A stretch of 11,161 nt of DNA from a virus (taxonomy: Duplodnaviria > Heunggongvirae > Uroviricota > Caudoviricetes). The stretch is taken from the IMG/VR virus record IMGVR_UViG_2563366906_000002. One strand, 5' to 3'. This document shows, in pieces, positions 1 through 11,161 of this stretch; the stretch's first letter is position 1; every line of letters begins with the position of its first letter. The notes beneath the pieces are model-generated. The model did not search any database. It saw only the letters and a program-made list of their open reading frames with translations, and had not been told where the DNA came from. The position numbers and the translations under genes are program-made.

Positions 1-74
1 GTGAAATTACCGACAAGAAGGGAAAGGGCCTTCCCGAGAGTGGTAAAGGAGAGGCCCTGGAAATACCCCACAGC

Positions 75-137
75 CCCGAAAAAGAGCCAGTCAGTTGCTT
101 AACTGACTGGCATTACCCCTTAGGGGGTGATTTTTTT
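75..137. terminator. Terminator-like hairpin cluster at the backbone/cargo boundary, possibly bidirectional
   Basis: Perfect inverted repeat CCAGTCAGTT-gctt-AACTGACTGG (87-110, extendable to an 11-bp stem 86-111). On the minus strand it is followed by a U-rich tract (complement of CCGAAAAAGAG, 75-85). A second short stem CCCC-tta-GGGG (116-126) is followed by T7 (131-137) on the plus strand. Confidence 0.4.
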
Positions 138-304
138 ACATGACTTTTGATTAGCTGACATTGTAAATCCGCATGTATCAGATGCATTGTTTTGCATGTG
201 GAAATGGGTGTTTTCACTGCCAGCTATCGCTACATGTAGCAAAAACACGGGCTTAATAAGAAATCATTCTGCCATAAGGCATAACTTCCCCGCGTGCTCA
301 GGTA

Positions 305-334
305 TTGACGTCATAGATATGGATCTTTTTTAAT
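305..334 (+). promoter_or_regulatory. Candidate sigma70-type promoter for the TIR-domain gene
   Basis: TTGACG (305-310) with TTTAAT (329-334) after an 18-nt spacer. The fit is weak because an AAGG ribosome-binding site (335-338) sits immediately downstream. By-eye assignment only. Confidence 0.2.
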
Positions 335-348
335 CAAGGTATGGTATT

Positions 349-1296
349 ATGAAGATATTTATTAGTTGGTCAGGTCAGGACAGCCTGGAGATAGCAAAAG
401 TATTACGGGATTGGATACCGAATGTTATTCAAGTAGCTGAGCCGTACGTATCAGCGGAAGATATTGATAAAGGCACTCGCTGGGCGACTGATATATCAAA
501 GGAACTTGATGACTCTTCTTATGGGATTATTTGCCTTACAAAAAATAATATTAATGCACCGTGGATAAATTTTGAGGCGGGTGCTTTAGGTAAAAAGGTT
601 GATAAGAGCCGGGTTAGTCCTTTCTTGTTTAAAATTAAACCATCTGAGATAACAGGCCCAATATTACAATTCCAGTATACTCGTTCGGATGATAAGAACG
701 ATATTTTGAAGTTGATGTTGTCAATAAATAATCAAGCAGGATTTTTGACTGAAGAACGCTTAACTAAAGCTTTCGAGCAATGGTGGCCAAGTTTAGAGCG
801 TGAGTTAGATAACATTCAAGATATTAACCCTGTAGATAAAGATTCCACTAAAAAAACAAAAGGTGATTCGACTTCTGAGATACAAAATCTTTCCAAAATT
901 GTTGAAAGTTTGCTGGATATTAGCCGAACAAATCACCAATTATTGCGTGATCCAGCATCATTATTGCCAGAAGAATATGTTAGCAAAATAATAAACAGGG
1001 AAGGGCGTAAAGAAACTGTTTTAAAAATTGTAGCTTCTGATTTATTATCCATGCATCATTCACTAATTCGTGTAAAAAGAAGATTTATTCGCCGTGGTAT
1101 TGATGAAACATCTAGGAGCGAGTTAATTGAATCATTAAATAAAATGATAATGGATTGTTCTAGAGTAATCGCTCACTTAGATAATTATTGTGGGGTTTCA
1201 TCAAACAATATGTTCAATAGTGCGCTTAGATTGCGGACCAGAAATTTAATTGACATGATGGATGAGGAGGATGCAGAACGGGATGAAATGGAATAA
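349..1296 (+). CDS. TIR-domain protein (about 130-aa N-terminal TIR-like domain plus about 185-aa predicted helical, charged C-terminal domain of unknown function)
   Basis: 315-aa ORF with ATG at 349 and AAGG 10 nt upstream. The N-terminus MKIFISWSGQDS...AKVLRDWI...GTRW...YGIICLTKNNINAPWINFEAG follows the bacterial TIR pattern: hydrophobic-FIS-aromatic-S start, then a W-x3-E motif with the putative catalytic Glu at residue 76 (nt 574-576). The C-terminal half matches nothing I recognise. AT-rich codon usage differs from the P2 backbone. Confidence 0.75.
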   Translation: MKIFISWSGQDSLEIAKVLRDWIPNVIQVAEPYVSAEDIDKGTRWATDISKELDDSSYGIICLTKNNINAPWINFEAGALGKKVDKSRVSPFLFKIKPSEITGPILQFQYTRSDDKNDILKLMLSINNQAGFLTEERLTKAFEQWWPSLERELDNIQDINPVDKDSTKKTKGDSTSEIQNLSKIVESLLDISRTNHQLLRDPASLLPEEYVSKIINREGRKETVLKIVASDLLSMHHSLIRVKRRFIRRGIDETSRSELIESLNKMIMDCSRVIAHLDNYCGVSSNNMFNSALRLRTRNLIDMMDEEDAERDEME

Positions 1297-1347
1297 TCAA
1301 TTTTGACTAATCATAAATAATTTTGCATATATAAACTTATAATGCCG

Positions 1348-1370
1348 CAGCCGCTATTTTTCAGCGGCTG
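1348..1370 (+). terminator. Hairpin downstream of the TIR gene, possible weak intrinsic terminator
   Basis: CAGCCGCT (1348-1355), 7-nt loop, AGCGGCTG (1363-1370), 52 nt after the stop codon. The 3' flank TATATCGTTTATAAT is only moderately U-rich, so termination efficiency is uncertain. Confidence 0.3.
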
Positions 1371-1858
1371 TATATCGTTTATAATGGGTATGTTATTTTT
1401 TATTTTGATAAAATCATTAAAATTGTCGATGTTATATGAATGCACATGTATTATTAATGTTAGAAGATTATGCCTGCTTACGGCTATTGTGCTGAATTCA
1501 ACTATGAACGCATCAGTATTAAAATCGTTCCATGAAATGTTCTTCGTCTACAGCAGATGATGGGCAACGAAAAAATGACGCTGAGTGAGTTGGTCGGGGA
1601 GAATTGTTAGAGGTATTTATGGAGTGGTTTAATAATATCGGTCAATCCTGAGTTGCAGCATCACATAGACGATAGGGAATCTCTCCAGTCGTTCTGGAAT
1701 GGCAGCGTTGAACAACAAGCACAGCGAGGCGTTAGATGCCCATCAGATTGACACAGAGGGTTTATGAATCGCTGGGATTTACTTAGTTTGAAAAATAATA
1801 TATTTATATGTTTTTGTATTGTGTTTGTTAAGGAGTTTGGATTGAAAAGAAAACTGAT

Positions 1859-2047
1859 TTGTGTTATGGCTTTTTGGGGGCGTTGCTGGCTGGTTGTAAT
1901 GAGAGTAATAAAAAAGAAGTTGAGGGTTGTATTGAAAGAGGTGTCCAATATTTTATAGAGATTGGTTCTTACCCTAAATTAAGTGATGGGCGTGATGCTG
2001 TGAAAGTTGCTACTGAACGTTGTAATAGAACAATAACGGCTTTCTGA
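1859..2047 (+). CDS. Small putative lipoprotein (lipobox LLAGC, mature part about 50 aa with three Cys); start codon uncertain
   Basis: The frame contains ...GFLGALLAGC|NESNKKEVEGCIERGVQYFIEIGSYPKLSDGRDAVKVATERCNRTITAF. Its stop (2045-2047) is 2 nt before the ATG of the next gene, indicating translational coupling. In-frame starts are non-canonical: ATT at 1841 (5 nt after an AAGGAG Shine-Dalgarno at 1830-1835) or TTG at 1859. The adjacent frame starting TTG 1842 encodes a textbook n-region MKRKLICVMAF and would join this frame via a 1-nt change in the T5G5 run at 1871-1880. Confidence 0.45.
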   Translation: MCYGFLGALLAGCNESNKKEVEGCIERGVQYFIEIGSYPKLSDGRDAVKVATERCNRTITAF

Positions 2048-2049
2048 TA

Positions 2050-2967
2050 ATGGATTATACGAGCTATATAATAGGACAGCTTCAGGTTGAGGATATTATT
2101 GATGCAATTAAAGGCGTTAATAATACTAATGTCATAAAAGATTATGTGCTGCCTGTAGTATTACCAATTATATCTTCTGTGCTGAGTTACTTTATTGCAA
2201 CTAGGTTGTTTTATCGGCAGGAGTACCTTAAAGCACAAAGAAGAAAGGTAAGCGTTGTAAATAAATGTATTTATGACTACTTTTCTGCAATGACAACGTT
2301 GTTGCAAATTAAAGGGAATTATTATGGTGGGGTAAGTATAAGTGAAAATCCTATCGAGAGGGCTTTAGCTTTTCCTGTTGTGGTTTTTTCTGGTGCTCCT
2401 CTATCATCAGATTTAAGTGAGTTTGCCTGTATATTGAGTCAAAAGGGAGTAGGGAATAATAGAGAGACAGCAAAGACTACTAACTGGGGGGATGCTTTTG
2501 CTGTTAGTGATATAGCAAGAAGGTTTAACAGCCTATTGGCTGCATTAAATGTTAGGAATGATTTTGATGACACCTATAGAGGAATGATTATTGAATCAAC
2601 AGGTTCACCTTTGCCTACGATGCGTTTTAAAAATGATGATATTGTTAATGCTATAGGTAGTAATAAGGCAGCTTATTACATTGATATTACTGAGCAAATA
2701 ATGATTATGATAGATGTTTTGTTGCTTGATATTAATCTGTTGCTCAAAGAGTTGCCATTGTATGCTGAATCGCTGTTTGACAAAAGAGTAATGCAAGAAG
2801 ATTCAGGGATTCTTAAATTCAATGATTTGCACGAACGTTTTCCTCTACTTATGAAACCTGTAACGCCACCTTCGATTAAACTCATGTCTGATTATTTGGG
2901 GTACAGTGAAGATGAGATCTTACGACGCTATCCATACCCGTTCTTTAATATGCATGATTGTGAATGA
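2050..2967 (+). CDS. Hypothetical single-pass membrane protein, 305 aa (N-terminal transmembrane anchor, family unknown)
   Basis: ORF with ATG at 2050 and no own Shine-Dalgarno, coupled to the upstream small ORF. One strongly hydrophobic segment YVLPVVLPIISSVLSYFIATRLFY (residues ~32-55) is followed by basic residues (RQEYLKAQRRK). AT-rich codon usage. No motif I can assign. Confidence 0.7.
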   Translation: MDYTSYIIGQLQVEDIIDAIKGVNNTNVIKDYVLPVVLPIISSVLSYFIATRLFYRQEYLKAQRRKVSVVNKCIYDYFSAMTTLLQIKGNYYGGVSISENPIERALAFPVVVFSGAPLSSDLSEFACILSQKGVGNNRETAKTTNWGDAFAVSDIARRFNSLLAALNVRNDFDDTYRGMIIESTGSPLPTMRFKNDDIVNAIGSNKAAYYIDITEQIMIMIDVLLLDINLLLKELPLYAESLFDKRVMQEDSGILKFNDLHERFPLLMKPVTPPSIKLMSDYLGYSEDEILRRYPYPFFNMHDCE

Positions 2968-3071
2968 ATGTGCATATGTCAGAAGCCGTTTTTATTGTCA
3001 GTTATCGTCAGTGCTGGCGCGCTCTTGGAGTGTTCATGCAACTGCATTAAAACCGCCCCACGAAGCGGGCG

Positions 3072-3090
3072 GGCGAGGCGGGGAAAGCAC
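3072..3090. other. cos: cos cohesive-end sequence of P2-type phages
   Basis: GGCGAGGCGGGGAAAGCAC matches my recollection of the 19-nt P2 cohesive end. It lies ~160 bp beyond the 3' end of the leftward portal gene, as in P2. Recalled, not database-checked. Confidence 0.55.
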
Positions 3091-3220
3091 TGCGCGCTGG
3101 CGGTGGTGATGATTGTCTGAGCGCGTCGTGATGGCGTTTAGATTGTGCGCCGGGGCGTTGGTGTGTCTGCGGGGTGTTTTGTACAGTGGCGAGCGTGTGA
3201 GGGCGTGATGACGGGGGTGT

Positions 3221-3242
3221 AAAAAAGCCGCCCGCAGGCGGC
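3221..3242 (-). terminator. Intrinsic terminator of the P-Q operon
   Basis: On the minus strand, stem GCCGCC-tgcg-GGCGGC followed by T6 (plus strand reads A6 at 3221-3226, then GCCGCC cgca GGCGGC). It begins 5 nt after the Q stop codon. Confidence 0.5.
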
Positions 3243-3247
3243 GATGT

Positions 3248-4282
3248 TCAGCCGTTGTCAGTGTCCAGTGAGTAGTTTTTAAAGCGGATGACCTCCTGAC
3301 CGAGCCAGCCGTTTATTTCCCGAATCCTGTCCTGTAACGGGATAAGTTCATTGCGGACAAAGACCTTTGCCACTTTCTCAATATCGCCCAGCGACCCGAC
3401 GTTTTCCGGCTTGCCACCCATCAACTGAAAGGGGATGCGGTGCGCGTCCAGCAGGTCAGCGGCGCTGGCTTTTTTGATATTAAAAAAATCGTCCTTCGTT
3501 GCCACTTCACTGAGCGGGATAATTTTAATGCCGTCGGCTTTCCCCTGTGGGGCATAGAGAAACAGATTTTTAAAGTTATTGCGGCCTTTCGACTTAACCA
3601 TGTTTTCGCGAAGCATTTCGATATCGTTGCGGTCCTGCACGGCATCGGTGACGTACATGATGTATCCGGCATGTGCGCCGTTTTCGTAATACTTGCGGCG
3701 GAACAGCGTGGCCGACTCATTCAGCCAGGCAGAGTTAAGGGCGCTGAGATATTCCGGCAGGCCGTACAGCTCCTGATTAATATCAGGCTCCAGCAGGTGA
3801 AACACGGAGCCGGGCGCGAAGGCTGTCGGCTCGTTGAAGGACGGCACCCACCAGTAAACATCCTCCTCCACGCCACGACGGGTATATTTGGCCGGTGAGG
3901 TTTCCAGTCTGATGACCTTACCGGTGGTGCTGTAACGCTTTTCCAGAAACGCATTACCGAACACCAGAAAATCCAGCACAAAACGGCTGAAATCCTGCTG
4001 GGAAAGCCACGGGTGCGGGATAAACGTTGAGGCCAGAATATTACGTTTGACGTAAATCGGTGAGCTGTGATGCACGGCAGCACGCAGGCTTTTTGCCAGA
4101 CCGGTAAAGCTGACCGGTGGCTCATACCATCTGCCGTTACTGATGCACTCGACGTAATCCAGAATATCACGGCGGTCGAGTACCGGCACCGGCTCACCAA
4201 AGGTGAATGCCTCCATTTTCGGGGCGCTGGCAGTCATTGTTTTCACCGCTGGCTGCGGTGTTTTCCCTTTTTTCTTACTCAT
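3248..4282 (-). CDS. Q: Portal protein (P2 gpQ-like)
   Basis: 344-aa ORF starting MSKKKGKTPQPAVKTM..., recognised as P2 portal protein Q, with the same length as P2 Q. Its ATG overlaps the stop of the upstream terminase gene (ATGA). Confidence 0.95.
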   Translation of the reverse strand: MSKKKGKTPQPAVKTMTASAPKMEAFTFGEPVPVLDRRDILDYVECISNGRWYEPPVSFTGLAKSLRAAVHHSSPIYVKRNILASTFIPHPWLSQQDFSRFVLDFLVFGNAFLEKRYSTTGKVIRLETSPAKYTRRGVEEDVYWWVPSFNEPTAFAPGSVFHLLEPDINQELYGLPEYLSALNSAWLNESATLFRRKYYENGAHAGYIMYVTDAVQDRNDIEMLRENMVKSKGRNNFKNLFLYAPQGKADGIKIIPLSEVATKDDFFNIKKASAADLLDAHRIPFQLMGGKPENVGSLGDIEKVAKVFVRNELIPLQDRIREINGWLGQEVIRFKNYSLDTDNG

Positions 4283-6054
4283 CAGTAAAACTCCAGAATG
4301 GTGGATGTCAGCGGAGTGCTGATACCGGCGGTGAGTGGCTCATTTAACAGGGCGTGCATGGTCGCCCAGGCGAGGTCGGCGTGGCTGGCTTCCTCGCTGC
4401 GGCTGGCCTCATAGGTGGCGCTGCGTCCGCTGCTGGTCATGGTCTTGCGGATAGCCATAAACGAGCTGGTGATGTCGGTGGCGCTGACGTCATATTCCAG
4501 ACAGCCACGACGGATAACGTCTTTTGCCTTGAGCACCATTGCGGTTTTCATTTCCGGCGTGTAGCGGATGTCGCGTGCGGCGGGATAGAACGAGCGCACG
4601 AGCTGGAACACGCCGACACCGAGGCCGGTGGCATCAATACCGATGTATTCGACGTTGTATTTTTCGGTGAGTTTGCGGATGGATTCAGCCTGGGTGGCAA
4701 AGTCCATGCCTTTCCACTGGTGACGCTCAAGTATTCTGAATTTGCCACCGGCCACCACCGGCGGTGCCAGTACCACGCATCCGGCGCTGTCGCCACGGTG
4801 TGACGGGTCGTAACCAATCCATACCGGGCGGGAGCCGAACGGATTGGCGGCAAACGGCGCATAGTCTTCCCATTCTTCCAGCGTGTCGACCATGCAGCGT
4901 TGCAGCTCCTCGAACGGGAACACCGACGCCTTGTCGTCAACAAATTCACACATGAACAGGTTTTTAAAATCGTCGGCGCTGTTTTCGCGTTTGAGCTGCT
5001 CAATGTCGAACAGCGTGCAGCCACCTTTCAGGGCGTCCTCAATGGTGACAATCTGCCGCCACTGGCCGTCCGCACAGAGAAGCCCTCCGGCAAGGGCGTT
5101 ATGACTGACGTCGATTTCCACGCGTTCGGCGGCGCTGGCGCGTCCCCGGTTGAACAGTTCACCTGACCAGAACGGGTAGGCGTCGTGCGCCAGCGTGGAC
5201 GGGGTGGAGAAATAGGTCGAACGCAGGTGACTCTGTGAGGCCATACCTGATGCCACCTTACGCAGTACCTGAAAATTCGGGATCCAGAAAATCTCGTCGA
5301 CGTACAGGTCGCCGTTATGGCTCTGTGCGGTGTTGGAGTTGGTGCCGAGAAAAATCAGTTTTGCGCCGTTATTGCCCAGGACAATCGGGTCACCGGTCAG
5401 GTCAACGTCAACCAGACGGGCAAAGGCGATGATGTATTCGCGGAACACATACGCCTGCGTTTTACTGGCCGACAGAAAAATCTGGTTATGACCGGTTTTC
5501 AGGGCACGCAGCAGCGCCTCGCGGGAAAAATAAAACGTTGCGCCAATCTGGCGGGATTTCAGGATATCGCGGATGCGGTGCTCAAGCCCGGCGCGATACC
5601 AGTGCAACTGATAGTCGAAAGACTGCTCAAAGAAAATCTGCTCCAGCTTTTCGATGGCTTCGTCGCTGAAAAAATTCTTTTTCGGTTTGCGCCGCCCGCC
5701 TTTGTTGCGGTTAGCGATGTTCGGATTAAGGTCTGCCTCGTTGCCGGTCTGACTGTAGCGGTTGACCCGTGCCAGTCGTTCAATCTGGCGTCCCAGCAGG
5801 TCAATTTCCTTGAAGTCACCGCCGGTTTTCTGCGGTTTGATGATGAGCTGGGTCAGCCGCGCTTCCAGACTCATTTCGACACGGCTGATGGGGGCAACGC
5901 TGTCCCAGCCGTCGCGCTGTTTCCAGCTCTGCACCGTCGGGCGTTTCATCTGCAACATGGCGGCAATCTGCGGCACGGAAAACCCCTGCCAGTACAGCAG
6001 CGCCGCCTGACGACGCGGGTCGTGTAAAAGAGTGGTGTCTGTGGTGATGGTCAT
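4282..6054 (-). CDS. P: Terminase large (ATPase) subunit (P2 gpP-like)
   Basis: ORF-track entry 4282-6084 begins at a TTG. The ATG at 6052-6054 (protein MTITTDTTLLHDPRRQ...) is preceded by GGCGAGG and gives 590 aa, the P2 gpP length. Large-terminase-like content; sits upstream of and coupled to Q. Confidence 0.93.
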   Translation of the reverse strand: MTITTDTTLLHDPRRQAALLYWQGFSVPQIAAMLQMKRPTVQSWKQRDGWDSVAPISRVEMSLEARLTQLIIKPQKTGGDFKEIDLLGRQIERLARVNRYSQTGNEADLNPNIANRNKGGRRKPKKNFFSDEAIEKLEQIFFEQSFDYQLHWYRAGLEHRIRDILKSRQIGATFYFSREALLRALKTGHNQIFLSASKTQAYVFREYIIAFARLVDVDLTGDPIVLGNNGAKLIFLGTNSNTAQSHNGDLYVDEIFWIPNFQVLRKVASGMASQSHLRSTYFSTPSTLAHDAYPFWSGELFNRGRASAAERVEIDVSHNALAGGLLCADGQWRQIVTIEDALKGGCTLFDIEQLKRENSADDFKNLFMCEFVDDKASVFPFEELQRCMVDTLEEWEDYAPFAANPFGSRPVWIGYDPSHRGDSAGCVVLAPPVVAGGKFRILERHQWKGMDFATQAESIRKLTEKYNVEYIGIDATGLGVGVFQLVRSFYPAARDIRYTPEMKTAMVLKAKDVIRRGCLEYDVSATDITSSFMAIRKTMTSSGRSATYEASRSEEASHADLAWATMHALLNEPLTAGISTPLTSTILEFY

Positions 6055-6227
6055 GAATACCTCGCCGTGATGAATACACGGCAAGGCTACTGAGTCGCGC
6101 CCCGCGATTCGCTAAGGTGCTGTTGTGTCAGTGATAAGCCATCCGGGACTGATGGCGGAGGATGCGCATCGTCGGGAAACTGATGCCGACATGTGACTCC
6201 TCTAATCACTATTCAGGACTCCTGACA
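6055..6227. promoter_or_regulatory. Divergent late-promoter region between P (leftward) and O (rightward)
   Basis: 173-bp intergenic region between divergently transcribed late operons. In P2 this interval carries the Ogr-dependent promoters for the PQ and ONML... operons. I could not pin down the individual promoter elements by eye. Confidence 0.5.
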
Positions 6228-7082
6228 ATGGCAAAAAAAGTCTCAAAATTCTTTCGTATCGGCGTTGAGGGTGACACCTGTGACGGGCGTGTCATCAGTG
6301 CGCAAGATATTCAGGAAATGGCGGAAACCTTTGACCCGCGTGTCTATGGTTGCCGTATTAACCTGGAACATCTGCGAGGCATCCTGCCTGACGGCATTTT
6401 TAAACGTTATGGCGATGTGGTCGAACTGAAGGCCGAAAAGATTGACGATGATTCGGCGCTGAAAGGCAAATGGGCGCTGTTTGCGAAAATCACCCCGACC
6501 GATGACCTTATCGCGATGAACAAGGCCGCACAGAAGGTCTACACCTCAATGGAAATTCAGCCGAACTTTGCCAATACCGGCAAATGTTATCTGGTGGGTC
6601 TGGCCGTCACCGATGACCCGGCAAGCCTCGGCACGGAATACCTGGAATTCTGCCGCACGGCAAAACACAACCCCCTGAACCGCTTCAAATTAAGCCCTGA
6701 AAACCTGATTTCAGTGGCAACGCCTGTTGAGCTGGAATTTGAAGACCTGCCTGAAACCGTGTTCACCGCCCTGACCGAAAAGGTGAAATCCATTTTTGGC
6801 CGCAAACAGGCCAGCGATGACGCCCGTCTGAATGACGTGCATGAAGCGGTGACCGCTGTTGCTGAACATGTGCAGGAAAAGCTGAGCGCCACTGAGCAGC
6901 GCCTTGCTGAGATGGAAACCGCCTTTTCCGCACTTAAGCAGGATGTGACTGACAGGGCGGATGAAACCAGTCAGGCATTCACCCGCCTGAAAAACAGTCT
7001 CGACCACACCGAAAGTCTGACCCAGCAGCGCCGCAGCAAGGCCACCGGCGGTGGCGGTGACGCCCTGATGACGAACTGCTGA
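6228..7082 (+). CDS. O: Capsid scaffolding protein (P2 gpO-like)
   Basis: Internal ATG at 6228 (MAKKVSKFFRIGVEGDTCDGRV...) preceded by AGGA; gives 284 aa, the P2 gpO length. The ORF-track entry starting at 6162 is an upstream extension. Confidence 0.93.
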   Translation: MAKKVSKFFRIGVEGDTCDGRVISAQDIQEMAETFDPRVYGCRINLEHLRGILPDGIFKRYGDVVELKAEKIDDDSALKGKWALFAKITPTDDLIAMNKAAQKVYTSMEIQPNFANTGKCYLVGLAVTDDPASLGTEYLEFCRTAKHNPLNRFKLSPENLISVATPVELEFEDLPETVFTALTEKVKSIFGRKQASDDARLNDVHEAVTAVAEHVQEKLSATEQRLAEMETAFSALKQDVTDRADETSQAFTRLKNSLDHTESLTQQRRSKATGGGGDALMTNC

Positions 7083-7140
7083 CCGGCGTCAGTCAGTCCG
7101 GGAAAACCTTCACGATTAACCCTTAATTTCAGGAAAAACT

Positions 7141-8214
7141 ATGCGCCAGGAAACCCGCTTTAAATTTAATGCCTACCTGTCCCGTGTTGCCGAACTGAAC
7201 GGCATCGACGCCGGTGATGTGTCGAAAAAATTCACCGTTGAACCGTCGGTCACCCAGACCCTGATGAACACCATGCAGGAGTCCTCTGACTTTCTGACCC
7301 GCATCAACATTGTGCCGGTCAGCGAAATGAAAGGGGAAAAAATTGGTATTGGTGTCACCGGCTCCATCGCCAGCACCACCGACACCGCCGGTGGCACCGA
7401 GCGTCAGCCGAAGGACTTCTCGAAGCTGGCGTCAAACAAGTACGAATGCGACCAGATTAACTTCGATTTTTATATCCGCTACAAAACGCTGGACCTGTGG
7501 GCGCGTTATCAGGATTTCCAGCTCCGTGTCCGTAACGCCATTATCAAACGCCAGTCCCTTGATTTCATCATGGCCGGTTTTAACGGCGTGAAGCGTGCCG
7601 AAACCTCTGACCGCAGCAGCAATCCGATGCTGCAGGATGTGGCGGTCGGCTGGCTGCAGAAATACCGCAATGAAGCCCCGGCGCGCGTGATGAGCAAGGT
7701 CACTGACGAGGAAGGGCACACCACCTCTGAGGTCATCCGCGTGGGTAAGGGCGGTGATTATGCCAGCCTTGATGCACTGGTGATGGATGCGACCAACAAC
7801 CTGATTGAGCCGTGGTATCAGGAAGACCCTGACCTTGTGGTGATTGTGGGACGTCAGCTACTGGCGGACAAGTATTTTCCCATCGTCAACAAGGAGCAGG
7901 ACAACAGCGAAATGCTGGCCGCTGACGTCATCATCAGCCAGAAACGCATCGGCAACCTGCCAGCGGTACGCGTCCCGTACTTCCCGGCGGATGCGATGCT
8001 CATCACGAAGCTGGAAAACCTGTCCATCTACTACATGGATGACAGCCATCGCCGCGTGATTGTGGAAAACCCGAAACTCGACCGCGTGGAGAACTACGAG
8101 TCAATGAACATTGATTACGTGGTGGAAGACTACGCCGCCGGTTGCCTGGTGGAAAAAATTAAGGTCGGTGATTTCTCCACACCGGCCAGGGCGACCGCAG
8201 AGCCGGGAGCGTGA
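7141..8214 (+). CDS. N: Major capsid protein (P2 gpN-like)
   Basis: 357-aa ORF starting MRQETRFKFNAYLSRVAELNG..., recognised as P2 major capsid precursor N. Same length and position as in P2. Confidence 0.95.
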   Translation: MRQETRFKFNAYLSRVAELNGIDAGDVSKKFTVEPSVTQTLMNTMQESSDFLTRINIVPVSEMKGEKIGIGVTGSIASTTDTAGGTERQPKDFSKLASNKYECDQINFDFYIRYKTLDLWARYQDFQLRVRNAIIKRQSLDFIMAGFNGVKRAETSDRSSNPMLQDVAVGWLQKYRNEAPARVMSKVTDEEGHTTSEVIRVGKGGDYASLDALVMDATNNLIEPWYQEDPDLVVIVGRQLLADKYFPIVNKEQDNSEMLAADVIISQKRIGNLPAVRVPYFPADAMLITKLENLSIYYMDDSHRRVIVENPKLDRVENYESMNIDYVVEDYAAGCLVEKIKVGDFSTPARATAEPGA

Positions 8215-8217
8215 CCG

Positions 8218-8961
8218 ATGACGAGTCCCGCACAGCGCCACATGATGCGGGTCTCGGCAGCGATGACCGCGCAGCGGGAAGCCGCCCCGCTGCGACATGC
8301 AACTGTCTATGAGCAGATGCTGGTCAAGCTGGCCGCAGACCAGCGCACACTGAAAGCGATTTATTCAAAAGAGCTGAAGGCCGCGAAAAAACGCGAACTG
8401 CTGCCGTTCTGGTTGCCGTGGGTGAACGGCGTGCTGGAGCAGGGCAAAGGTGCACAGGATGACATTCTGATGACGGTCATGCTGTGGCGTCTGGATACCG
8501 GCGATATTGCCGGTGCGCTGGAGATTGCCCGTTATGCCCTGAAGTACGGTCTGACCATGCCGGGTAAACACCGCCGCCCCCCGCCGTACATGTTCACCGA
8601 GGAGGTGGCGCTCGCGGCCATGCGTGCTCACGCTGCCGGTGAGTCTGTGGATACCCGCCTGCTGACGGAGACCATTGAACTGACCGCCACGGCTGACATG
8701 CCTGATGAAGTGCGCGCAAAGCTGCACAAAATCACCGGTCTGTTTCTGCGTGACGCTGGTGATGCCGCCGGTGCGCTGGCTCACCTGCAACGTGCGACAC
8801 AGCTCGACTGTCAGGCAGGCGTCAAAAAAGAGATTGAACGACTGGAGCGGGAGCTGAAACCGAAGCCGGAGCCGCAGCCAAAAGCGGCCACCCGTACCCC
8901 GCGTAAGACCCGGAGCGTGACACCGGCAAAACGTGGACGCCCGAAAAAGAAAGCCAGTTAA
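8218..8961 (+). CDS. M: Terminase small (endonuclease) subunit (P2 gpM-like)
   Basis: 247-aa ORF 3 nt after the N stop. Position and length match P2 gpM; basic Pro/Lys-rich C-terminal tail. Confidence 0.92.
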   Translation: MTSPAQRHMMRVSAAMTAQREAAPLRHATVYEQMLVKLAADQRTLKAIYSKELKAAKKRELLPFWLPWVNGVLEQGKGAQDDILMTVMLWRLDTGDIAGALEIARYALKYGLTMPGKHRRPPPYMFTEEVALAAMRAHAAGESVDTRLLTETIELTATADMPDEVRAKLHKITGLFLRDAGDAAGALAHLQRATQLDCQAGVKKEIERLERELKPKPEPQPKAATRTPRKTRSVTPAKRGRPKKKAS

Positions 8962-9060
8962 CAACCGAATGCGCCCCGCGCCAGGGCGGCACGCCGGTCA
9001 GTGAGGGTGAATTACCTGACATTGCACCGGCGTCCACCGCCCGACTTTTCAGAGGTAGTC

Positions 9061-9570
9061 ATGATGACGCTGATTATTCCGCGAAAGGAGGCTCCCGTGT
9101 CCGGTGAGGGTACGGTGGTCATCCCGCAACCGGCAGGCGACGAGCCGGTGATTAAAAACACGTTCTTTTTTCCCGATATCGACCCGAAGCGCGTCCGGGA
9201 ACGTATGCGCCTTGAGCAGACCGTCGCCCCCGCCCGTCTGCGTGAGGCCATCAAGTCAGGCATGGCGGAGACGAATGCGGAGCTGTACGAGTACCGCGAA
9301 CAGAAAATTGCCGCCGGTTTTACGCGTCTGGCGGACGTCCCGGCGGACGACATCGACGGTGAAAGCATCAAAGTTTTTTACTACGAGCGCGCCGTGTGTG
9401 CGATGGCGACCGCGTCGCTTTATGAGCGTTATCGCGGCGTGGATGCCAGTGCGAAAGGTGACAAGAAGGCTGACAGCATTGACAGCACCATTGATGAACT
9501 GTGGCGGGATATGCGCTGGGCGGTGGCGCGTATCCAGGACAAGCCGCGCTGCATCGTGAGTCAAATCTGA
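9061..9570 (+). CDS. L: Head completion/stabilisation protein (P2 gpL-like)
   Basis: ATG at 9061 (MMTLIIPRKEAPVSGEG...) preceded by GAGG; gives 169 aa, the P2 gpL length. The ORF-track entry from 9001 is an upstream extension. Confidence 0.9.
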   Translation: MMTLIIPRKEAPVSGEGTVVIPQPAGDEPVIKNTFFFPDIDPKRVRERMRLEQTVAPARLREAIKSGMAETNAELYEYREQKIAAGFTRLADVPADDIDGESIKVFYYERAVCAMATASLYERYRGVDASAKGDKKADSIDSTIDELWRDMRWAVARIQDKPRCIVSQI

Positions 9571-9773
9571 TGAAGACCTTTGCGCTACAGGGCGACACGC
9601 TCGACGCCATTTGTGTCCGGTATTACGGGCGCACTGAGGGCGTGGTTGAGACCGTGCTCGTCGCAAATCCGGGACTGGCTGAACTGGGTGCGGTGCTGCC
9701 ACACGGCACCGCCGTCGAACTGCCCGACGTTCAGACCGCGCCCGTGGCTGAAACTGTCAATCTGTGGGAGTAA
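9570..9773 (+). CDS. X: Tail protein X (P2 gpX-like)
   Basis: 67-aa protein MKTFALQGDTLDAICVRYYGRTEG... from the ATG at 9570, overlapping the L stop by 1 nt (TGATG). Length and position match P2 X. Confidence 0.9.
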   Translation: MKTFALQGDTLDAICVRYYGRTEGVVETVLVANPGLAELGAVLPHGTAVELPDVQTAPVAETVNLWE

Positions 9774-9776
9774 CGC

Positions 9777-10058
9777 ATGACAGCAGAAGAAAAAAGCGTC
9801 CTGTCGCTTTTCATGATTGGGGTGCTGATTGTTGTCGGCAAGGTGCTTGCCGGTGGTGAACCCATCACCCCGCGTCTGTTTATCGGGCGCATGTTGCTCG
9901 GTGGTTTTGTCTCGATGGTTGCCGGTGTTGTTCTGGTGCAGTTTCCTGACCTGTCACTGCCTGCGGTGTGCGGCATCGGCTCCATGCTGGGTATCGCCGG
10001 TTATCAGGTGATTGAGATTGCCATTCAGCGCCGCTTTAAGGGCAGGGGGAAACCGTAA
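9777..10058 (+). CDS. Y: Holin (P2 gpY-like)
   Basis: 93-aa hydrophobic protein with several predicted transmembrane segments and a charged C-terminus (RRFKGRGKP), located immediately upstream of the endolysin gene. Length matches P2 Y. Confidence 0.9.
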   Translation: MTAEEKSVLSLFMIGVLIVVGKVLAGGEPITPRLFIGRMLLGGFVSMVAGVVLVQFPDLSLPAVCGIGSMLGIAGYQVIEIAIQRRFKGRGKP

Positions 10059-10555
10059 TGCCGGTAATTAACACGCATCAGAATATCGCCGCCTTTCTCG
10101 ACATGCTGGCCGTGTCCGAAGGGACGGCGAATCATCCGCTGACGAAAAACCGGGGCTATGACGTGATAGTCACCGGACTGGACGGAAAGCCGGAAATCTT
10201 CACCGACTACAGTGACCACCCGTTCGCACATGGCCGACCGGCGAAGGTGTTTAACCGTCGCGGTGAAAAATCCACGGCCTCCGGTCGCTATCAGCAGCTT
10301 TACCTGTTCTGGCCGCACTACCGCAAACAGCTTGCCCTGCCGGATTTCAGTCCGTTGTCACAGGACAGACTTGCCATTCAGTTGATCCGCGAACGCGGTG
10401 CACTGGATGACATCCGGGCGGGACGCATTGAGCGCGCCATTTCACGCTGTCGCAATATCTGGGCGTCCCTGCCGGGTGCCGGTTACGGTCAGCGTGAGCA
10501 TTCACTGGAAAAACTGGTCACCGTCTGGCGTACCGCTGGCGGCGTACCGGCTTAA
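10058..10555 (+). CDS. K: Endolysin, phage lysozyme family (P2 gpK-like)
   Basis: 165-aa ORF whose ATG overlaps the Y stop (TAATG). N-terminus MPVINTHQNIAAFLDMLAVSEGT... is typical of phage lysozyme-like endolysins. Length matches P2 K. Confidence 0.92.
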   Translation: MPVINTHQNIAAFLDMLAVSEGTANHPLTKNRGYDVIVTGLDGKPEIFTDYSDHPFAHGRPAKVFNRRGEKSTASGRYQQLYLFWPHYRKQLALPDFSPLSQDRLAIQLIRERGALDDIRAGRIERAISRCRNIWASLPGAGYGQREHSLEKLVTVWRTAGGVPA

Positions 10556-10569
10556 ACGGAGTAAACACC

Positions 10570-10995
10570 ATGAAGAAATTATCCCTTTCACTGATGCTGC
10601 ACGTGTCGCTGGCGCTGATGCTGGCACTGTCCCTGATTTACCCGCAGAGCGTGGCTGTCAGTTTTGTCGCTGCCTGGGCAATTCTGGCGACGGTTATCTG
10701 TGTGGTTGCCGGTGGTGTCGGCGTGTATGCCACTGAGTATGTGCTGGAACGCTACGGGCGGGAGCTGCCGCCGGAATCGCTGGCCGTGAAGATTGTCACG
10801 GCGCTGTTTTTGCAGCCGGTGCCGTGGCGCAGGCGGTCAGTGGCTCTGGTAGTGATGGTGGCGACGTTTATCTCGCTGGTCGCTGCCGGGTGGATTTTTA
10901 CTGCGCTGATTTATCTTGTGGCGTCGCTGTTTTTCCGGCTGATACGTACGGCCTGCCGTCAGCGTTTTGAGGGGCGGGAACCATGTCAAAGCTGA
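10570..10995 (+). CDS. lysA: Lysis-timing membrane protein (P2 LysA-like)
   Basis: 141-aa protein with multiple hydrophobic helices, directly after the endolysin gene. Length and position match P2 lysA. Confidence 0.85.
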   Translation: MKKLSLSLMLHVSLALMLALSLIYPQSVAVSFVAAWAILATVICVVAGGVGVYATEYVLERYGRELPPESLAVKIVTALFLQPVPWRRRSVALVVMVATFISLVAAGWIFTALIYLVASLFFRLIRTACRQRFEGREPCQS

Positions 10996-11161
10996 TGACG
11001 GTGCTGGTTGTGTTGTTATCACTGGCGGTGCCGGGGCTGTTTCTGGTGAAGCATGAAAATGCCAGCCTGCGCACCTCACTGGACAGGGCGAACAGCGTCG
11101 CCAGCGGGCAGCAGACGACCATCACCATGCTGAAAAATCAGCTTCATGTTGCCCTCACCAG
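10983..11161 (+). CDS. lysB: Rz-like inner-membrane spanin (P2 LysB-like), 5' part only; runs off the window
   Basis: ATG at 10983 overlaps the lysA 3' end in another frame. N-terminal signal-anchor MSKLMTVLVVLLSLAVPGLFLV is followed by a polar, helical region. No stop codon before the window ends. Confidence 0.85.
   Translation, partial: MSKLMTVLVVLLSLAVPGLFLVKHENASLRTSLDRANSVASGQQTTITMLKNQLHVALT

Follow-up and report, generated by a model that had tools for sequence, protein, structure and literature searches.

A mosaic cargo island between gpA and cos of a P2-like prophage: an IS4-interrupted copy of a known TIR defence system and a candidate envelope cassette

Is the AT-rich block beside the cohesive-end site (cos) of this P2-like phage segment a single, so far undescribed defence locus, or a set of cargo genes with separate origins? 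The question concerns an 11,161-nucleotide stretch of viral DNA (IMG/VR record IMGVR_UViG_2563366906_000002; hereafter the window), in which positions 140-2970 hold three predicted genes, coding for a TIR-domain protein, a small lipoprotein and a membrane protein of 305 amino acids (aa). A preliminary description, made from the sequence alone, had treated the three genes as one locus for defence or exclusion, possibly undescribed. Our analysis leads to another grouping. Window positions 116-2967 are very probably mosaic cargo in the hotspot between gpA and cos, composed of a TIR gene of the type found in Escherichia phage P2_AC1 (hereafter AC1), the relic of a further small gene and an independent envelope cassette. 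The TIR gene belongs to an anti-phage system that was already validated in 2022, and is not undescribed; the lipoprotein and 305-aa genes appear to form a two-gene cassette of their own (1692-2967), and the idea of a new defence or exclusion locus may still hold for this pair alone.

As the preliminary description had noted, the block is compositionally unlike the late genes: its G+C content is 35.9%, against 56.7% in the late genes (3248-11161) and 58.9% in the cos region (2968-3247), and a sliding-window profile falls steeply over 140-2970. Its location also agrees with the earlier assignment to the variable locus between gene A and cos, which in P2 is occupied by old and tin (Rousset et al., 2022; PMC9122126). 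The backbone becomes homologous to that of other P2-like phages between 2964 and 3072 (at 2964-3037 in one comparison and at 3007-3072 in the other), so that the island abuts cos, and the linear AC1 record ends at position 3071. The island shares with P2 old and tin the gpA-cos position and the character of non-essential prophage cargo that excludes other phages, without any sequence relationship: no Old or Tin model of PADLOC or Pfam is matched, and P2 records yielded nothing similar in DNA or in protein. At the protein level, P2_AC1 is the only one of 50,697 phage records to encode either the 305-aa protein or the full TIR protein, and neither has a counterpart in P2. On all these points, including the view that a P2-like prophage acquired cargo horizontally and that this cargo comprises anti-phage defence, the preliminary description was right; where it went astray was in the grouping of the genes.

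The TIR domain was correctly recognized: Pfam TIR_2 matches the 315-aa product with an E value of 7.5e-10, over approximately residues 1-115, and the C-terminal half is helical and without a membrane segment. The PADLOC model PDLC03016 ('TIR-TM') covers residues 1-295 with an E value of 2.7e-118, and the protein is 100% identical to that of AC1 over residues 1-301, the portion aligned by tblastn. At the DNA level, positions 140-2970 are 99.9% identical to AC1 and 99.5-99.9% identical to 14 complete Escherichia coli chromosomes. AC1 has been isolated, and its lysogen resists lambda and LF82_P8; when the '2TM + 1TM + TIR' genes of AC1 were cloned as pFD240, the phenotype of the lysogen was reproduced and P2 was blocked as well (Rousset et al., 2022; PMC9122126, Fig. 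5B-E). The system is named Rst_2TM_1TM_TIR in DefenseFinder and is also modelled in PADLOC. The insert of pFD240 begins just past gene A, and the annealing site of its reverse primer, an exact and unique match in the window, places the end of the validated fragment at position 1683, so that the lipoprotein and 305-aa genes (1842-2967) lie outside the clone. Table S5 of the same study gives the hotspot as five genes, 'hyp + hyp + TIR_2 + hyp + hyp', including WP_023140580 and WP_023140581 (Rousset et al., 2022); the first three alone were covered by the test of the clone.

According to PADLOC, the partners of the TIR protein are two membrane proteins encoded upstream of the window, one of 124/126 aa ('2TM-TIR', E value 6.9e-58) and one of 185 aa ('1TM-TIR', E value 2.7e-75); neither of these two models matches the lipoprotein or the 305-aa protein. 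The upstream genes could be located because window positions 1-7296 are 100% identical to the E. coli scaffold KB732428.1 (GCA_000350985.1; hereafter L032), in which the order is gpA, 2TM, 1TM, the insertion sequence IS4, TIR, the 305-aa gene and the portal gene. All three open reading frames (ORFs) of the system are intact, but the contiguity that they have in the AC1 clone is not kept here, as IS4 lies between 1TM and TIR. What the window and L032 hold is an interrupted copy of the AC1 system, not a separate system. It has in common with AC1 the hotspot, the upstream 2TM and 1TM genes, the downstream genes and a T5G5 allele of the lipoprotein gene (described below); it differs in the presence of IS4 and a 12-bp duplication between 1TM and TIR, seen only here among the copies examined, and in its late-gene backbone, which is a different P2-like mosaic. 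The defence content of the island is already known, since the locus was cloned in 2022 and is represented in both DefenseFinder and PADLOC, and annotation from the window alone would assign the TIR gene to the wrong partners.

Grouping the TIR, lipoprotein and 305-aa proteins into one undescribed three-gene system, with TIR as sensor or enzyme and the envelope proteins as effectors, is a reading to which we give very little credence and which is already largely refuted. In its favour, the three genes are neighbours with a common orientation and a high A+T content, and the 305-aa gene lies downstream of this TIR gene in 14/14 complete genomes and in 10/10 places read; however, all of these belong to one lineage of 99.5-100% identity, so the co-occurrence is not independent evidence. 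In addition, a distant relative of the 305-aa protein is encoded about 0.8 kb from a ThsB-like TIR gene. Against a single system stand the curated models, which recognize the two upstream genes as the TIR partners, and the clone, which reproduces the phenotype and yet stops at 1683. Between TIR and the pair lie a terminator-like hairpin, a spacer of about 545 bp and the relic of a gene, and hhalign finds no relation of the 305-aa family to the 1TM effector; the 305-aa protein had been considered as a paralogue of 1TM, a candidate that was dropped on this result. Moreover, at least three further hotspot architectures contain the pair but no TIR gene.

The lipoprotein/305-aa pair was seen in four such architectures of P2-like prophages, three of them without TIR. 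In the AC1 type it follows 2TM-1TM-TIR; in E. coli MS 16-3 and in locus L012 it follows a DUF3850/ASCH gene and a 77-aa gene and precedes a 333-aa gene; in locus L004 it precedes a 433-aa gene; and in ETEC1730 and locus L013 it is the sole listed cargo between gpA and the portal gene. All close copies of the 305-aa gene lie in the P2 hotspot, and that of Escherichia albertii holds a 52%-identical copy. The window matches the TIR-less prophage of MS 16-3 at high identity from position 1692 onwards. The degenerate relic between TIR and the pair derives from the phrog_11386 gene, whose usual place is behind gpA-DUF3850, as seen in P2-like prophages of about 336 E. coli genomes; only positions 1539-1598 still translate recognisably, with a tblastn match to residues 22-41 at 60% identity (E value 4e-4). 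The relic (1538-1750) marks the place where an old recombination event joined the TIR cassette to the lipoprotein cassette.

The left edge of the island is formed by IS4, which was identified by its terminal inverted repeat, the 3' end of its transposase and its 12-bp target duplication (Table 1). In L032 the element spans 4257-5767, that is, 1511 positions of which 425 are an N gap, and window position 1 is the first base past this 425-N scaffold gap; the canonical length of IS4 is 1426 bp and the expected target duplication is 11-13 bp. Window positions 1-115 agree base for base with IS4 of E. coli MS 21-1 (L014:1801-1915). Positions 1-109 had at one stage been taken for the 3' end of the 1TM gene, by transfer of coordinates from E. 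coli 0-4, an assignment rejected when the alignment showed the end of IS4. The uninterrupted target site in AC1 is AAAATCACCCCTTAGGGGGTGATTTTTTT, which folds with a 12-bp stem, and the duplicated CCCCTTAGGGGG is the loop-proximal part of that hairpin. After the insertion, the terminator hairpin was rebuilt from the last four bases of IS4 (112-115) and the target copy. Folding of the RNA from 80 to 145 gives two adjacent hairpins (-31.1 kcal/mol, z -6.3). They had been described as a backbone hairpin cluster at 75-137, but are in fact the subterminal palindrome of IS4 (86-111) and the rebuilt terminator of the 1TM gene (112-131). This IS4 insertion is absent from the 14 complete genomes, from AC1 and from nine other places read, and a search of viral contigs did not reveal the IS4/TIR junction.

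IS4 leaves positions 116-348 and all three ORFs of the system intact, and the region of about 230 bp upstream of TIR is untouched. Because the hairpin already parts 1TM from TIR in AC1, and because the upstream region of TIR is preserved, the 2TM + 1TM + TIR system in this genome is probably still functional. A natural IS4-interrupted copy offers a handle on whether TIR is expressed, or acts, independently of the 2TM-1TM transcription unit.

Two unrelated IS4 sites share one pattern. The copy between fumB and fumC in MS 21-1 has a target similar to the one described here, a G+C hairpin followed by TTTTTTTACATG, and also a 12-bp duplication; the pattern recurs at window positions 116-142 and at L014:1916-1942, and points to what may be a strong preference of IS4 for terminator-like sites. 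A megablast match of window positions 1-142 in 2,614 genomes is explained by the IS4 end together with the similar hairpin/TTTTTTTACATG target of the fumB-fumC copy.

As for the action of the TIR protein, its domain contains a W72...E76 motif that aligns weakly (E values 0.66-1.4) with the W..NYE stretch of the NAD+ hydrolase AbTIR (7uwg, 8g83); E76 falls on the Glu of this stretch, which is the catalytic residue of AbTIR. In the mechanism that we envisage, the TIR enzyme, with Glu76 as putative catalytic residue, would be switched on by infection and would consume NAD+. Either an ADP-ribose-derived signal would then turn on the 2TM and 1TM membrane effectors, or TIR would deplete NAD+ directly, and by both routes the infection would be aborted. 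Rousset and co-authors put forward the hypothesis of a nucleotide messenger, made by TIR, through which the membrane proteins are activated (Rousset et al., 2022). We found no mechanistic study of the AC1 TIR system in the literature searched by protein accessions and follow-up work, and Wang et al. (2024) contains no identifiable entry for it.

The AC1 system resembles Thoeris in its stand-alone bacterial TIR protein, with small membrane proteins encoded beside it, and the same logic, a nucleotide signal made by TIR that activates the membrane proteins, was proposed for it as a hypothesis (Rousset et al., 2022). However, Thoeris consists of ThsB and ThsA, or in type II has a membrane-anchored Macro effector, whereas here there is no ThsA-like SIR2/SLOG or Macro domain; the window gave no PADLOC match to Thoeris, and the neighbouring proteins gave no ThsA-type match in PADLOC or Pfam. 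A protein of the lambdoid phage mEp390 (JQ182729.1:33733-34218), annotated as hypothetical, is 41% identical to residues 1-157 of the TIR protein.

The second cassette begins with the lipoprotein gene, whose TTG start lies six bases past AAGGAG and whose intact product starts with MKRKLICVMAFWGALLAGC followed by NES. In the window, the T5G5 run at 1871-1880 has one G fewer than the T5G6 run of E. coli 0-4, and the resulting -1 frameshift splits the gene and strips the charged start from the signal peptide, leaving MCYGFLGALLAGC from the TTG at 1859. The T5G6 form, in frame, occurs in 13 complete E. coli genomes, and a T7G4 form, in frame too, in the MS 16-3 type. T5G5 is carried by the window, AC1, strain M21816, two IMG/VR contigs and 10/10 of the places read that have the window's exact TIR protein, a protein listed in 427 blocks. 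The allele is fixed in a sublineage that includes the experimentally used phage AC1.

The earlier assignment of this gene to a lipoprotein stands for the intact alleles, in which a charged start, a hydrophobic core and a lipobox of the form L-[AS]-G-C (MKRKLICVMAFWGALLAGC; MNKN...LLSGC) are recognized by eye, but not for the frameshifted ORF of the window. The lipobox and two further Cys residues are invariant across four subtypes, and the C-terminal half is nearly invariant. The ratio of nonsynonymous to synonymous substitution rates (dN/dS) is 0.16-0.36 for the lipoprotein gene and 0.13-0.22 for the 305-aa gene, indicating that both are real genes under purifying selection. The lipoprotein falls into phrog_32041 and has a weak match to phrog_36378 (E value 0.0026), both without annotated function; it has no significant Pfam match, no NCBIfam family and no PADLOC match. 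Its mature domain, C..RG..YF.EIGSYP.LS...ERC.RT..AF, belongs to a wider family of small proteins with 54 clusters, some members of which have a zinc ribbon and a membrane anchor in place of the lipobox. On a conjugative element of Nitrosospira sp. Nsp11 (L036:6001-6222), the domain is encoded just past the Trb genes and a DUF4236 gene, without the membrane protein. Since the domain is found elsewhere without the membrane protein, the pairing is specific to the P2-like subgroup.

The 305-aa gene, in contrast to the frameshifted lipoprotein gene, has an uninterrupted reading frame, conserved at 99-100%. The first 31 aa of its product, which are acidic, are predicted to be periplasmic, and are followed by a membrane helix (residues 32-55) and a cytoplasmic helical bundle of about 250 aa; the charge of -3 before and +5 after the membrane helix predicts an N-out/C-in topology. 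A first AlphaFold2 run with 3 sequences gave a poor model (predicted local distance difference test, pLDDT, 57), and a second, with an alignment of 50 sequences, was used (pLDDT 87.8; predicted template modelling score 0.80). In this model, a short N-terminal helix precedes a long helix that crosses the membrane and continues as a stalk, and the helical bundle is followed by small C-terminal helices. An exhaustive profile search recovered a family of 199 representative clusters at E < 1e-3, most of them full-length and of 280-300 aa; a word-indexed search had found two clusters only, and a search for related loci with a 3-sequence alignment one genome and four viral loci, all P2-like. P35, K88 and R104 are invariant in the family, and Y32, N71, L84, Y91, P101, R169, E215, D222 and a position reported as N158 are nearly so. 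All 50 members tested (50/50) fall into phrog_21267, without annotated function. Neither the 305-aa protein nor 50 relatives gave a Pfam, NCBIfam or PADLOC match, other than sub-threshold chance matches, and searches of the Protein Data Bank with the protein sequence and the family profile returned nothing meaningful; no solved or viral fold was matched either. Profile searches of the island proteins, which the preliminary description had recommended, thus lead to a known system for TIR and to no defence model for the lipoprotein and the 305-aa protein.

With IS4 on one side and a frameshift on the other, the island in this genome might be largely inert, decaying cargo, its TIR gene uncoupled by the insertion and its second cassette inactivated. 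We regard this as unlikely. The insertion between 1TM and TIR is found in this scaffold only, the T5G5 frameshift does remove the charged start of the signal peptide, and the relic at 1538-1750 shows that decay occurs at the island. However, IS4 sits in a pre-existing terminator and spares the upstream region of TIR and the three ORFs; AC1, with the same frameshift, is protective through its TIR system; the 305-aa ORF is intact and conserved, as described above; and pseudogenes of defence genes are rare in P2 (2026 survey, PMC13586616). For the second cassette taken alone, as the lipoprotein gene is frameshifted here as well as in AC1, function is probably impaired in this genome.

What, then, might the intact pair do? 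Tentatively, and at somewhat less than even chances, we propose that it constitutes a new anti-phage module of the P2 hotspot, complete in itself and acting across the inner membrane. The small lipoprotein, with a disulfide, would reside in the periplasm, and the 305-aa protein, translationally coupled to it, would be inserted N-out/C-in, the pair acting at the envelope against an incoming phage. An Asp at position +2, the inner-membrane retention signal of the Lol-avoidance rule, is present in two lipoprotein subtypes, and would therefore bring the lipoprotein next to the short helix that the 305-aa protein exposes in the periplasm. Together, lipoprotein and periplasmic helix would be the sensing or blocking part, and the cytoplasmic bundle would act either in superinfection exclusion, by stabilising a block of DNA entry, or in abortive infection, by triggering damage to the membrane. 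Small prophage lipoproteins that act as exclusion factors include Llp of T5, Cor of phi80 and N15, and Ltp of Streptococcus TP-J34, and inner-membrane superinfection exclusion proteins include Imm and Sp of T4 and SieA of P22. The pair resembles such factors in combining a very small prophage lipoprotein with a disulfide and an inner-membrane protein at an exclusion or defence locus; however, no sequence or profile similarity to any of these factors was detected, and the large cytoplasmic helical bundle of the 305-aa protein has no counterpart among them.

Several observations weigh against a defence role of the pair. The clone without the pair fully reproduces the phenotype of the AC1 lysogen, although AC1 carries the frameshifted allele; if the proposal is correct, this allele would explain why no activity was assigned to the cassette in 2022. 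None of 50 members of the 305-aa family matches PADLOC, members of the lipoprotein domain family are also found where the membrane protein is absent, and two distant members of the 305-aa family stand alone among housekeeping genes. No conserved partner accompanies the distant members: their neighbours were a DUF4124 protein, a membrane protein of 215 aa or a soluble protein of 146 aa, and in other cases there was none; hhalign detected no relation between the 305-aa family and the upstream partners. Finally, P2 hotspots also contain cargo unrelated to defence, such as partition systems and toxins (Rousset et al., 2022).

Several of these points would equally suit a moron without a defence function, that is, an envelope-modifying or host-fitness factor like the Bor lipoprotein of lambda, or a factor serving the prophage's own biology. 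Such a role is possible but doubtful in our view. It would be in keeping with the spread of the lipoprotein domain family in free-living Proteobacteria, with the lack of a match to any defence model, and with the persistence of the frameshifted allele in a common sublineage (the 427 blocks listed, with T5G5 in all ten places read). It fits less well with the confinement of all close copies to a defence hotspot, in four combinations of cargo, and with the location of several distant members on mobile elements or in restriction-modification and toxin-antitoxin neighbourhoods. Moreover, six of eight randomly chosen loci of unknown genes in P4 hotspots were protective (2026 survey, PMC13586616). 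On balance, we lean towards an anti-phage role of the pair at the envelope.

The distant members share 20-27% identity, and their neighbourhoods are a handful of cases without a statistic. Members were found between hsdS, the gene for a specificity subunit of a type I restriction-modification system, and a pentapeptide-repeat gene; beside an integrase and IS21; beside a Gp49/helix-turn-helix toxin-antitoxin pair; and after a DUF4124 exported protein, near an MqsA-like helix-turn-helix gene. A 290-aa member (P0006) directly follows the integrase of a P4-like satellite (L017:311-7430) that also carries Ogr/Delta, a Toprim primase and an ANT-domain (PF03374) protein, in what looks like the cargo position of the satellite. 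In TARA and Logan metagenome contigs (L020:6246-8837 and L021:397-2988), a member lies in an islet with a divergent ThsB-like TIR protein, which has a Fib_succ_major domain, and RadC; this second, independent TIR neighbourhood of the family may be a coincidence. Such a scatter fits an accessory, often mobile gene and would be compatible with defence.

Overall, the interest of the locus is modest and lies in a corrected grouping of genes, in which two upstream membrane proteins are the TIR partners, in an IS4-interrupted variant of the system and in a well-defined candidate cassette. The residual novelty rests with this cassette, for which four independent hotspot contexts, natural intact and frameshifted alleles, a confident structural model and a family of about 200 clusters are at hand; given the protective P4-hotspot loci (PMC13586616), it is a reasonable and cheap candidate for a new envelope-level defence.

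Table 1. Coordinates of the features discussed, in the window unless stated otherwise
Feature	Position	Strand	Basis or remark
IS4 right end	1-115	+	Transposase stop at 100-102; terminal inverted repeat ...CTGACTGGCATTA ends at 115
Hairpin and T7 run	112-138 (stem 112-131)	+	Terminator scan; intrinsic-terminator-like structure that follows the 1TM gene in AC1
IS4 target-site duplication, right-hand copy, 12 bp, CCCCTTAGGGGG	116-127	.	Twin 12-mer directly before the IS4 left end TAATGCC in L032
TIR-domain protein, 315 aa	349-1296	+	Third gene of the 2TM + 1TM + TIR (Rst_2TM_1TM_TIR) system
Terminator-like hairpin	1347-1371	+	51 nt past the TIR stop; 9-bp G+C-rich stem, z -3.4; T-tail weak
Degenerate relic of a small 68/77-aa gene (phrog_11386)	1538-1750	+	About 70% DNA identity to the gene in about 336 E. 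coli genomes
pFD240 reverse primer annealing site	1659-1683	+	Table S2 of Rousset et al. (2022); one perfect match in the window
Small lipoprotein gene, 68 aa when intact	1842-2047	+	TTG start at 1842; frames here 1764-1958 and 1859-2047
305-aa single-pass membrane protein	2050-2967	+	Starts 2 nt past the lipoprotein stop
P2-type cos 19-mer GGCGAGGCGGGGAAAGCAC	3072-3090	.	Sequence; right limit of the hotspot
Portal gene gpQ	3248-4282	-	First backbone gene right of the hotspot; annotated as phage portal protein in identical or near-identical loci
Large terminase	4282-6084	-	ORF list and annotations of near-identical loci
2TM gene and 1TM gene	3280-3660 and 3681-4238 of scaffold L032		PADLOC

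The window as a whole is a segment of a P2-like phage, and the 19-mer GGCGAGGCGGGGAAAGCAC, which we take to be the P2 cohesive end, closes the hotspot on the right. Beyond the portal and large terminase genes, the plus strand encodes the scaffold, capsid, small terminase, head completion and lysis functions; the late genes are 97-98% identical to those of many P2-like phages, and 98.4% identical to another P2-type record. A search of window positions 1-3400 against Rfam gave no match, and a promoter scan gave none above the expectation from shuffled sequence, so that the island is annotated without a promoter. The ORF at 1342-1560 (72 aa) and the minus-strand ORFs of the island had no support and were treated as spurious.

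The 333-aa gene (L003:8646-9647) and the 433-aa gene (L004:1808-3109; weak match to MauJ) are further unannotated hotspot cargo encoded after the lipoprotein cassette, and neither has a significant Pfam, PADLOC, NCBIfam or PHROGs match. In one assembly (L027; GCA_006239165.1, SRJR01000058.1), the 2TM-1TM-TIR-305 block is preceded not by gpA but by a SIR2_2 gene and a 571-aa gene; the late-gene region that follows aligns with the window only as numerous short fragments in scrambled order, and a cos-like stretch is found upstream too. Either the prophage is rearranged or present in tandem, or the contig is misassembled. Many complete RefSeq assemblies of E. coli (e.g., NZ_CP133923.1 and NZ_CP147084.1) begin at base 1 of the P2 gpA gene, this replication endonuclease gene having apparently been mistaken for the chromosomal start gene when the assemblies were rotated.

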